Both the position numbers and the translations under genes were made by a program. From IMG/VR virus record IMGVR_UViG_2923350032_000005, positions 1-40,702 of that record: 40,702 nucleotides of DNA. One strand, 5' to 3'. Shown one piece after another: positions 28,723 through 30,189 of the stretch (the stretch's first letter is position 1; each line of letters begins with the position of its first letter). This DNA is from a virus (Duplodnaviria; Heunggongvirae; Uroviricota; Caudoviricetes). The notes beneath the pieces are model-generated. The model was given only the letters and a program-made list of their open reading frames with translations. It ran no database searches and was not told the origin of the DNA.

Positions 28723-29045
28723 ACTTTCAGCCCCCTCTCATGTAACCAGTGGGCTGCACGCAGCCTGGCGTTTTCCTCACCAGCAAGCAGTGCGCGGATA
28801 ATCCCGGCCGCCTCGCTGTCGTCGTCCTTCACCGCGGTATGAAGCGTTATCCCCCGGGCCACGCCACGCTTTATCGTGATGACGCCTTTTTTCTCCAGTG
28901 CGCGAAGATGCTCCACCGCTGCATTCACTGAACGGTATCCCAGCATGGTTGCCACCTCCTGATTGGTTGGCGGGAAGCCACGTTCTTGCTGATAAGAAAT
29001 CAGCATATCCAGCACCTGCTGCTGGCATTGAGTTAACGTCGTCAT
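28719..29045 (-). CDS. LexA-N-like winged-helix DNA-binding protein
   Basis: 108 aa; LTQCQQQVLDMLISYQQERGFPPTNQEVATMLGYRSVNAAVEHLRALEKKGVI resembles the LexA N-terminal DNA-binding domain; no peptidase domain. Confidence 0.5.
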   Translation of the reverse strand: MTTLTQCQQQVLDMLISYQQERGFPPTNQEVATMLGYRSVNAAVEHLRALEKKGVITIKRGVARGITLHTAVKDDDSEAAGIIRALLAGEENARLRAAHWLHERGLKV

Positions 29046-29728
29046 GCCGCCATCTCCCTGACCAGTTTTTCTGCCTGATGGCGAACCTGCGCCAGAAAGG
29101 CCTCACCACATGCCTCAAGTTCATCGCGCCCGATGTAGCTGATTGCCGGTCCCTTCCAGGTCTTGTCGAAAACAGCAATAGCACCAGCGAAGAAAGCGCC
29201 TGTCGGCACCTGCTTCTCATCCTTCGGGATAAACCAGGCAGGCAGTTCAAAACCAATACGCCCGCGAATAAAAGCAATATGATCTGCATCTTCCGGCCAC
29301 CACACTTCGCTGGTGGCAGCTTTGATCAGGAAAACATAGCGCCCGCCTTTATCACGCATGGCACTGGCATGCTTCATGATGTAACGCATGCCGGTGATGT
29401 ATTGCCCCTCATGCTGACTGGCGCGGCTGTATGGGGGATTACCAAAGGCAGCACCTTTAAGCTCCGCAAGGCGTTCTGACCAGTCATGCGCCAGCGCGTT
29501 GTCTTCCGCCGTGTAATACGCAGCACATTTGGCGTTATCACCGTCAGTGAACAGATCCAGAACAAACGGGCCAAACAGGGTGTTAATTCCCCAGAAAATG
29601 TTGTCCGGCGTGCGCCACTGATCGCCCACTTCCTTCAGTTCATGGGCTGGTTTGTTCCGCAGTTCCACCAGCGCCTGGCAATATTTATTACTCATTAAGC
29701 CCCCACGTAATTCCCTGAGAGATACCAC
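29042..29728 (-). CDS. Orphan DNA N6-adenine methyltransferase (phage Dam-like)
   Basis: 228 aa with ...GAAFGNPPYS... (DPPY-type catalytic motif); no adjacent restriction endonuclease. True start may be the internal ATG (MSNKYCQ) near 29695. Confidence 0.75.
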   Translation of the reverse strand: MVSLRELRGGLMSNKYCQALVELRNKPAHELKEVGDQWRTPDNIFWGINTLFGPFVLDLFTDGDNAKCAAYYTAEDNALAHDWSERLAELKGAAFGNPPYSRASQHEGQYITGMRYIMKHASAMRDKGGRYVFLIKAATSEVWWPEDADHIAFIRGRIGFELPAWFIPKDEKQVPTGAFFAGAIAVFDKTWKGPAISYIGRDELEACGEAFLAQVRHQAEKLVREMAA

Positions 29729-30189
29729 TCTTCACCTGATGCAGCCCGCTTACTGCTTTTCCGTAAACACCGTTCACGACGCGCCAGAAAATTGTTTCGT
29801 TCTGGCTGGGAGTGGCTTTCACGGAATGCCGCCATCCACACCGTTGCAGCACGACGGTATAAGCCCCTGGACTCCAGTTCTTCCGCCTGGCGGGTCAGGC
29901 ACAAAATCACCCGCGGGTCGTTAGTGCCGACATAGAAATTGCGCACAGGTCTGGTTTCACGAACTGGTTGCCGTTCCGCCTCCGGCGATATCTTTGTCTG
30001 GCGCGGGAAATGTCTGCGTGTATCCCCTTCACAACGGTGAGCCACACGCCCACTCTGACGTAACTTGCTTGCTGACTGCAGAACGCGCTGCCGTGAGTAA
30101 CCAGCAAAAGCATCCGCAATGTCTCCGGAAGTACACCCCGGATGGGCTTCAATGAATTTCTGAACTTCATTCAAAAGACTCATAATCAC
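29695..30189 (-). CDS. PerC-like domain protein (putative transcriptional activator)
   Basis: 164 aa; C-terminal half AEELESRGLYRRAATVWMAAF resembles the PerC/Pch signature as I remember it; identification tentative. Confidence 0.45.
   Translation of the reverse strand: MIMSLLNEVQKFIEAHPGCTSGDIADAFAGYSRQRVLQSASKLRQSGRVAHRCEGDTRRHFPRQTKISPEAERQPVRETRPVRNFYVGTNDPRVILCLTRQAEELESRGLYRRAATVWMAAFRESHSQPERNNFLARRERCLRKSSKRAASGEEWYLSGNYVGA

Follow-up and report, generated by a model that had tools for sequence, protein, structure and literature searches.

A yfdN-methyltransferase gene pair in the early operon of an SfII/SfV/CPS-53-type prophage: a probable GATC Dam and a putative regulatory or accessory protein with a PerC-like module

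Introduction

The subject of this study is a pair of genes, yfdN and a gene for an N6-adenine DNA methyltransferase (MTase), found in a 40,702-nucleotide stretch of viral DNA (IMG/VR record IMGVR_UViG_2923350032_000005, positions 1 to 40,702; hereafter referred to as the window). The region concerned is the union of two overlapping minus-strand open reading frames (ORFs; 29695-30189 and 29042-29728). Its closest described counterparts are yfdO-yfdN-yfdM in the CPS-53 (KpLE1) prophage of Escherichia coli K-12 and orf39-orf40-dam of phage SfV, together with the corresponding genes of phage SfII, which have the same gene order, strand logic and overlaps. The K-12 YfdN protein is 93% identical to YfdN of the window, and K-12 YfdM, described as a "putative methyltransferase", is 100% identical to residues 1-89 of the window MTase and ends directly after the NPPY motif. 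The K-12 prophage has only a truncated MTase gene and a remnant of O, whereas both genes are intact in the window prophage; in SfV the pair is annotated as orf40 and dam. The window pair is the intact form of K-12 yfdN-yfdM and belongs to an already known and widely annotated module.

Of 5,426 complete E. coli genomes, 2,668 contained a match to the 1,148-bp pair, with an identity of 90-99%, and RefSeq labels its members "yfdN: PerC family transcriptional regulator" and "phage N-6-adenine-methyltransferase". Over the 2.5 kb around the pair, identity to SfII, Kati, PhiR49 and other phages amounts to 97-98.5%, and Stx2a- and Stx2c-converting phages match in part; the region itself shows 97-99% nucleotide identity to SfII, SfV-like phages, mEp460 and Stx2a/Stx2c phages. 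The module is standard equipment in SfII/SfV/CPS-53-type prophages and in several Stx2 phages, and matters little as a discovery. YfdN, at the same time, is carried by roughly half of the sequenced E. coli genomes, K-12 included.

Characterised relatives of the MTase are M.EcoVT2Dam, T1 Dam, HP1 Dam and PamA, which are all solitary phage genes without an endonuclease, as is the MTase gene of the window. The positions W-x-T-P, L-D, N..C, W, NPPY and G-R..F are common to the window MTase and these small phage Dams, but its subfamily differs from the characterised enzymes by an identity of only 24-43%, by two insertions and by a C-terminal helical extension of ~45 residues. The genomic setting differs as well, the VT2-Sa Dam gene lying in the nin region between ninB and ninE and the window gene near a replication gene. 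M.EcoGII and M.EcoGI are likewise solitary adenine MTases of lambdoid E. coli prophages and are silent in the lysogen (PMC5778455); they differ in being beta-class enzymes (349 amino acids, DPPY...FxGxG, with a target recognition domain), and no such gene occurs in the window.

For YfdN, the nearest described proteins are PerC, encoded by the EAF plasmid of enteropathogenic E. coli, and the Pch proteins of enterohaemorrhagic E. coli (EHEC) prophages. These are single-domain proteins of ~90-104 amino acids that match the whole PerC model with ~150 bits. YfdN has in common with PerC and PchA/B/C the core A-x-x-L-E-x-x-G-L-[YFW]-R-R-A-A-x-x-W, and it is also prophage-borne; unlike them, it has an N-terminal winged helix and a linker of ~30 residues. 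In addition, pchA is located near the lysis genes in the opposite orientation, whereas yfdN stands in the early operon after a replication gene. Only the group-1 proteins PchA, PchB and PchC activate ler, while PchD, PchE and the Pch proteins of groups 2 and 3 do not (PMC5931665, PMC6265319). PchE of the EHEC element Sp7, which represses csgD and affects flagella, has 90 amino acids, lacks the winged helix and belongs to a different mobile element; the phenotypes ascribed to it stem from plasmid over-expression (PMC6265319). Somewhat closer to yfdN in its setting, pchE is co-transcribed with upstream replication-type genes, namely a primase and an ssb-like gene in the sequence record, and a polycistronic transcript has been reported (PMC7369912).

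Here we argue that the window pair consists of two early-operon genes of a temperate prophage, one encoding a probable GATC Dam and the other a putative regulatory or accessory protein, YfdN; to this explanation as a whole we assign a probability of about 0.7.

An orphan methyltransferase of the small phage Dam family

The sequence-only reading of this DNA had pointed to an NPPY-motif adenine MTase, and profile searches bore this out. The features concerned are the following.

29042-29695, minus strand: phage N6-adenine DNA MTase, 217 amino acids from the ATG at 29695 (PF05869, TIGR01712, PADLOC, PGAP start)
29429-29440, minus strand: catalytic motif IV, NPPY (AAT CCC CCA TAC), residues 86-89 of 217, read from the sequence

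The longest MTase ORF (29042-29728) would begin at a first GTG at 29728 and encode 228 amino acids. The ATG at 29695, however, is the MTase start assigned by RefSeq/PGAP in a 98.9%-identical relative and yields the 217-residue protein, and the full-length match to PADLOC MTase_II (521 bits) begins at residue 12 of the 228-residue ORF. The sole Pfam match was PF05869, "Dam" (155.7 bits; cutoff 28.1), while the NCBIfam equivalog TIGR01712, "phage N-6-adenine-methyltransferase", was matched over its entire length (model positions 1-165 of 165) with 255.3 bits against a cutoff of 97.05. With E values from 1e-45 to 1e-76, these family matches are far beyond chance. Furthermore, the NPPY motif proved invariant in an alignment with T1 Dam, VT2-Sa Dam and a staphylococcal PamA-type enzyme, the complete set of invariant positions being W27, T29, P30, L46, D47, N54, C57, W72, N86-Y89, G145, R146 and F149. 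From these sequence features we infer that the 217-residue protein is an S-adenosylmethionine-dependent DNA N6-adenine MTase of the small phage Dam family PF05869. An AlphaFold2 model, built from a shallow alignment of 22 homologues (76-99% identity), was unusable at a mean predicted local distance difference test score (pLDDT) of 39-39.4, and searches of the PDB with the MTase sequence and with a three-member family profile returned no meaningful homologue.

A different name for this protein is in circulation. In the RefSeq phage records NC_021857, NC_049941 and NC_009514, as well as in phage Kati, the MTase is labelled "phosphoadenosine phosphosulfate reductase". PHROG 33262, a profile of 495 positions, of which 283-492 are taken up by the Dam domain, outscores the MTase profile PHROG 111 on this protein (324 versus 303 bits), and the reductase label is probably an annotation error that propagates from this fused profile.

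The MTase had also been said to have no partner endonuclease. Indeed, its gene is flanked by yfdN and a gene for a LexA-N-like protein, and no restriction endonuclease gene adjoins it, so that the arrangement is not that of a Type II restriction-modification (R-M) system. Three genes with nuclease domains were found in the window: RusA (a junction resolvase), a DUF968/HNH gene at 26507-27502, 1.5 kb from the MTase gene, and a GIY-YIG gene at 1913-2737, 26 kb from it. The full-length match to the PADLOC Type II MTase model and the presence of HNH-like and GIY-YIG domains within the window would fit an R-M pair of which the MTase is the modification half, with the DUF968/HNH or the GIY-YIG protein as its partner, but the likelihood of such a pair is next to negligible. 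Neither nuclease gene adjoins the MTase gene, and DUF968/HNH is excluded as the partner because phage SfIV retains it without the MTase, which would be fatal were the two a true R-M pair. Over its full length, the GIY-YIG gene matches PD-T4-3, a defence system that consists of a single gene, and in SfV, phage cdtI and Stx2 phages the MTase gene is flanked by the same LexA-like/RusA genes, with no endonuclease. The MTase is an orphan.

GATC as the probable target

T1 Dam, which matched PF05869 with 237 bits, is GATC-specific, and HP1 Dam is a GATC methylase. VT2-Sakai orf32 (M.EcoVT2Dam; 218 bits on PF05869) also has GATC as its target (PMC6602927); the VT2-Sa Dam is 30% identical to the window MTase. 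A staphylococcal relative, ORF032 of phage 52A, has 141 amino acids with M1, N64-P65-P66-Y67 and a C-terminal Q141, which exactly matches the description of PamA; its PF05869 score was 110 bits, and it shares 43% identity with the window MTase. For PamA, GATC methylation was established by a DpnI assay (PMC12435837). All PF05869 members for which we found a published target are GATC-specific (PMC6602927, PMC12435837). Since members that are 24-43% identical to the window MTase, and that come from Gram-negative as well as Gram-positive phages, share GATC, we estimate the chance that the window enzyme methylates GATC at roughly two in three. The GATC content of the prophage itself (3.7 per kb, with an observed/expected ratio of 0.74, like several other 4-mers) was uninformative on the target.

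The gene pair in the early-right operon

The location of the pair had been called replication-proximal, and this holds: the gene immediately upstream encodes an O-like/HTH_36 initiator and contains iteron-like repeats. The genes and sites of interest here are listed below.

30186-31127, minus strand: O-like replication initiator, 313 amino acids (Pfam HTH_36 and DnaD_N; PHROG 391 "replication initiation O-like", 453 bits)
29695-30189, minus strand: yfdN-type gene, 164 amino acids; its GTG start and the O-like stop overlap as GTGA (ORF, PerC, PHROG 1324)
29693-29704, minus strand: yfdN/MTase junction, with a G5 tract at 29700-29704, the TAA stop at 29695-29697, the ATG at 29693-29695 and the overlap TAATG
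28719-29045, minus strand: LexA-N-like protein, 108 amino acids, start overlapping the MTase stop as ATGA (Pfam LexA_DNA_bind, 69 bits)
32430-33116: CI-like repressor with an S24 peptidase domain

The divergently placed early-right genes on the minus strand follow the order cro, CII/CP76-like, DUF4222, O-like initiator, yfdN, MTase, LexA-N-like, RusA, KilA-N, DUF968/HNH and Q. From the O-like gene through KilA-N, adjacent genes overlap by 1-14 nucleotides, and around yfdN and the MTase gene by 1-4 nucleotides. Thus the O-like gene and yfdN are joined by the overlap GTGA, the MTase and LexA-N-like genes by ATGA, and the two junctions further downstream also overlap; the TAATG between yfdN and the MTase gene is a predicted translational-coupling geometry. 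On the minus strand, neither a sigma-70-like promoter nor a terminator-like site turned up in a consensus scan between the cII-like gene and RusA. The scan gave no minus-strand terminator anywhere from cro to RusA, the sole terminator-like match on that strand being located at 32473-32486, upstream of cro. Rfam gave no match in the region. A single pR-type early-right transcript would carry both yfdN and the MTase gene, and in the lysogen the CI-like repressor would keep this message off, whereas induction or infection would switch it on. Because the two genes overlap their neighbours downstream of cro/cII and no promoter was found by the scan, their products are expected upon induction or infection and not in the lysogen.

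The close coupling of the two genes raises the question of whether their products work together. A large protein database contains several 380-residue YfdN-MTase fusions, most of them derived from draft or Logan assemblies; they arise from a change of G5 to G6 at 29700-29704, which creates the in-frame join ...NYVGGLMSNKY.... Among the complete E. coli genome records, the exact flanking sequence with G6 did not occur, against 439 exact matches with G5. We read the fusions as rare mutants or homopolymer errors, not as a real allele or a sign of programmed frameshifting. Phage YfdN homologues always follow the replication gene, yet the order beyond them varies: SfIV has O-YfdN-LexA-like without an MTase gene, whereas in phage cdtI the order is O-Dam-LexA-like and no more than the first 28 codons of yfdN are left. 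Because SfIV thus has yfdN without the MTase gene and cdtI the MTase gene without an intact yfdN, the two genes appear to be neighbours in a mosaic module and not an obligate pair.

These observations also bear on the idea of a two-subunit enzyme in which YfdN chooses the substrate, analogous to M.EcoPA8orf6770P-PNB-2. In that system the product of a phage gene that bears the annotation DNA adenine MTase needs a second protein for its real activity: the Stx-phage protein is inactive alone, and PNB-2 is required for the methylation of 16S rRNA (PMC10810198). A comparable arrangement in the window would be in line with the TAATG stop-start overlap and with the 380-residue database fusions that result from the G5-to-G6 change. 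Nevertheless, M.EcoPA8orf6770P is of the MT-A70 type, with DPPW as its motif, and hence of a different family, SfIV and cdtI each keep one gene without the other, T1 Dam, VT2-Sa Dam and PamA have no YfdN partner, PamA being active alone (PMC12435837), and no record of a complete E. coli genome has the G6 fusion sequence with its exact flanks. We therefore rate a YfdN-MTase enzyme as highly improbable. That the Stx-phage rRNA MTase and PNB-2 might be the very same gene pair, a suspicion prompted by the interruption of yfdN by IS629 in phage Stx2a_WGPS2, was ruled out, the Stx-phage enzyme being MT-A70 with DPPW (PMC10810198), whereas the window motif is NPPY and the sole Pfam match PF05869. The PNB-2 case nonetheless calls for caution with assignments made from annotation only.

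With respect to the replication gene, 15-nucleotide iteron-like direct repeats were found inside the O-like gene at 30755-30829. They comprise five overlapping 30-nucleotide copies at a spacing of 15 nucleotides, the 15-nucleotide unit being about CAGATTTTGACGGGT, and are likely origin iterons; they also code for a PSKSDASKSD... stretch of the O-like protein. Between the O-like initiator gene (30186-31127) and Q (25741-26493) there is no gene for a lambda-P, DnaC or DnaB-type helicase loader, and the position of YfdN is the slot of P in lambda. The C-terminal half of the O-like initiator matches DnaD-like/"primosomal" PHROGs, and this protein may recruit host factors itself.

Expression and role of the methyltransferase

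E. coli's own Dam methylates ~98-99.9% of the GATC sites (PMC6602927, PMC3893438), whereas lambda DNA is only ~50% Dam-methylated when packaged (PMC3299994). A GATC enzyme is redundant in a dam+ lysogen because the sites there are already methylated to such an extent, and it makes sense in lytic growth, given that packaged lambda DNA is methylated to only about half. The window MTase would thus be a GATC enzyme produced during lytic growth. There, it would fully methylate the fast-replicating phage DNA that the host Dam leaves under-methylated, and the progeny, bearing a host-like Dam pattern, would then be shielded in hosts with GATC-directed, methylation-sensitive restriction. This has a practical consequence. 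The sequence-only reading had named the lack of a methylated motif specific to the lysogen, as compared with a cured strain, as a refutation; such a criterion is invalid, because a GATC enzyme would show no new motif in a dam+ host even when it is active. For the probable GATC enzyme of the window, the comparison of lysogen and cured-strain methylomes is accordingly the wrong test, and a dam- background is needed.

Several observations weigh against an early-operon GATC Dam. In the literature searched, a published specificity was not found for any member that is more than 43% identical to the window MTase. Relative to T1 and VT2 Dam, the MTase subfamily has two insertions, one of ~10 residues after NPPYSRA and one of ~7 residues near position 160, and it has LDLFTD in place of LDAAAS; these changes could alter target recognition. 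As for expression, the depositors of the SfV sequence annotated a separate dam promoter inside orf40. The hexamers of that promoter correspond in the window to TGGCGC and TACGGA, which are weak and were missed by our scan, and some expression of the MTase gene in the lysogen may occur.

The first of these considerations opens the way to an enzyme with a relaxed or non-GATC specificity that would give broad protection against restriction, in function comparable to M.EcoGII or Hia5. E. coli prophage MTases can indeed be non-specific and silent in lysogens, as exemplified by M.EcoGII (PMC5778455) and Hia5/Hin1523 (PMC3299994), and the identity of the window MTase to the GATC enzymes amounts to only 24-43%, its subfamily having the two private insertions. 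However, M.EcoGII is a beta-class enzyme (DPPY...FxGxG, 349 amino acids) and Hia5 is part of a distinct DPPY subfamily that had not been characterised before, and GATC is the target of every PF05869 member with a published target that we found, in Gram-negative and Gram-positive phages alike. A broad device of this kind is on balance unlikely. A link of the MTase to Hia5/Hin1523 and M.EcoGII was suspected at first and ruled out, as these belong to different families. A close relative of the prophage has, besides this MTase gene, a gene near the lysis genes for a 350-residue "DNA-methyltransferase", which by its size and position is taken to be M.EcoGII-like. Slightly less probable still is the pair of proposals that the subfamily with the two private insertions recognises something besides plain GATC, or that YfdN proteins are anti-silencers (see below), which we graded jointly.

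The possible expression in the lysogen, on the other hand, relates to the proposal that the MTase is expressed from the prophage and reprogrammes host genes epigenetically, as PamA does in Staphylococcus aureus; the sequence-only reading had named epigenetic control as one of two options. With PamA, a PF05869-type enzyme, under the control of its native prophage, fnbA expression and virulence go up (PMC12435837), and the SfV record shows a dam promoter inside the upstream gene. The host of PamA, however, is inferred to lack GATC methylation, as DpnI cut the DNA only when pamA was present (PMC12435837), whereas with the near-complete methylation by E. coli Dam an extra GATC enzyme adds almost nothing in the lysogen (PMC6602927, PMC3893438). 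In addition, the MTase gene lies inside a repressor-controlled early operon with overlapping codons and no scanned promoter, and methylomes of strains with prophage MTases revealed no extra motifs and silent genes (PMC4659465, PMC6602927). We hence consider host reprogramming by the window MTase improbable and retain an early, lytic role for a probable GATC Dam.

YfdN joins a predicted winged helix to part of a PerC module

In YfdN, the sequence-only reading had tentatively recognised a C-terminal segment of the PerC/Pch type and suggested a search with the PerC profile. When run, this search placed YfdN above the family threshold of Pfam PF06069, "PerC" (36.3 bits versus a gathering cutoff of 22.6, E 6.6e-9, residues 100-151), and at this level the tentative call holds. 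The resemblance is nonetheless partial: YfdN covers only positions 5-56 of the 90 positions of the model, not the full length of a single-domain member, and has an extra winged-helix domain. PchA and PchE of O157:H7 Sakai, by comparison, scored 149-153 bits over positions 1-89. In pairwise BLASTP comparisons, YfdN was 41% identical to PchA over 44 residues and 40% identical to PchE over 52 residues. YfdN also scored 259 bits on PHROG 1324, "transcriptional activator", and is the protein that RefSeq annotates as PerC family regulator. An ATG two codons after its GTG start would give a product of 162 amino acids.

The architecture of the protein was apparent from an AlphaFold2 model based on 37 homologues, with a mean pLDDT of 82.6, which contains two confidently predicted domains.

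30004-30177, minus strand: N-terminal winged-helix domain of YfdN, residues 5-62 (AlphaFold2 model, pLDDT above 90)
29755-29916, minus strand: PerC-like three-helix bundle of YfdN, residues 92-145 (AlphaFold2 model, pLDDT about 97)

In the model, the three-helix bundle is TPR-like, the linker formed by residues 63-91 is disordered, and a floppy tail bears a conserved L-x-G-x-[YF]-x-G. This two-domain layout is kept in the 37 homologues, down to an identity of 23%. A search among 1.84 billion representative proteins returned 99 matches at E ≤ 0.001, many of the full-length ones being proteins of 140-165 amino acids that aligned end to end, and the YfdN family appears to be small and mainly enterobacterial. 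A PDB search with YfdN gave no meaningful match. Residues 98-144 also matched the ANR family NF033650 with 23.5 bits (E 3.6e-5), which is below the cutoff of 32, and YfdN is not classed as a member. The ANR proteins (AraC negative regulators, such as Aar) are small helical modules like this part of YfdN, and members of the family bind other regulators.

As modelled, the winged helix probably binds DNA. Because Pch has been reported to relieve H-NS-dependent silencing, we propose that YfdN could be a PerC-type interaction module that is tethered to DNA; in other words, it would be an early regulatory or accessory protein of the phage that brings a protein-interaction module of the PerC type to DNA. 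The Pch effect was attributed to the displacement of H-NS-containing complexes (PMC4764244). By extension, YfdN-type proteins might be early-operon anti-silencers, a notion that we regard as distinctly unlikely and that shares its single estimate with the alternative MTase target mentioned above. Such anti-silencers could carry the PerC module to specific DNA sites and cause cross-talk with H-NS-silenced host islands, including those of commensals.

A further reading of the PerC label is that YfdN, like the Pch proteins, might act on the virulence regulons of the host. On that reading, YfdN would be a functional PerC/Pch-type activator of virulence or adhesion genes such as LEE1/ler (LEE, locus of enterocyte effacement), csgD or those for flagella. 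In its favour, YfdN exceeds the Pfam PerC threshold and is ~40% identical to PchA and PchE in the helical core, PchE is known to repress csgD (PMC6265319), and one group deleted the K-12 yfdN before performing ler reporter assays (PMC5931665). Yet YfdN reaches 36 bits over model positions 5-56 of 90 where PchA and PchE reach ~150, PchD and PchE themselves fail to activate ler (PMC5931665), YfdN has the extra winged-helix domain, the early-operon position of yfdN differs from the settings of both pchA and pchE, and the yfdN module is widespread in commensal and K-12 strains without the LEE. Moreover, we found no experiment in the literature that links YfdN to ler or to virulence regulons. An action on host virulence regulons is unsupported by an identity of ~40% over ~45-50 residues in a protein of different architecture and genomic position, and we judge a virulence-activator function of YfdN very unlikely. 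The PerC label refers to ~50 residues of a helical module and is not to be read as "virulence activator".

Experimental literature on YfdN was limited to three incidental mentions, and no other experiments were found. In the ler reporter strain referred to above, yfdN was deleted as a precaution, being "the K12 unique PerC homologue" (PMC5931665); furthermore, yfdN was a hit in a glycogen over-expression screen (PMC2853380), and a region identified in a filamentation screen included a yfdN paralogue (PMC6206680). As regards pchE, this gene lies within 11103-12044 of the Sp7 sequence of O157:H7 Sakai, in a 15-kb element with integrase, primase, capsid, portal and terminase genes, and it directly follows the ssb-like gene, a replication-adjacent position that is reminiscent of yfdN.

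Prophage context and other features of the window

The window is essentially one prophage of an SfII/SfV/CPS-53-type temperate phage, integrated at thrW beside proA, and it appears complete from the integrase through the tail genes. Its right end is marked by three features.

38081-39244: integrase
39259-39334: tRNA-Thr
39449-40702: proA

The LexA-N-like protein encoded downstream of the MTase gene matched TIGR00498 (lexA) over positions 1-91 of 203 only, below the cutoff. It comprises the LexA-type DNA-binding domain alone, without the S24 cleavage domain, and its gene, which the ATGA overlap predicts to be coupled in translation to the MTase gene, is kept beside the MTase site in SfV, SfII, SfIV, cdtI and Stx2 phages. 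This 108-residue protein could be an uncleavable LexA mimic.

Two further genes show similarity to defence systems. The GIY-YIG protein (1913-2737, plus strand; 274 amino acids) is a full-length PD-T4-3 match with a PADLOC score of 464 bits and a Pfam LEM-3_GIY-YIG domain, and its gene lies in a left-end stretch of low GC content (38-40%) beside an AraC-family gene (396-1148, minus strand). The second is an ORF of 306 amino acids (33099-34019, minus strand) that ends in a BRCT domain (Pfam, 28.8 bits) and weakly matches PADLOC PDC-S48. It is located in a low-GC island directly beside the CI-like repressor gene and is a candidate moron or defence gene.

Finally, a Pin/Hin-type invertase gene (2798-3388, minus strand; resolvase and HTH_7 domains) adjoins short ORFs at 3379-4476, which we assumed from their position only to be tail-fibre segments. 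Together, the invertase gene and these short ORFs (2798-4476) suggest an invertible host-range switch.

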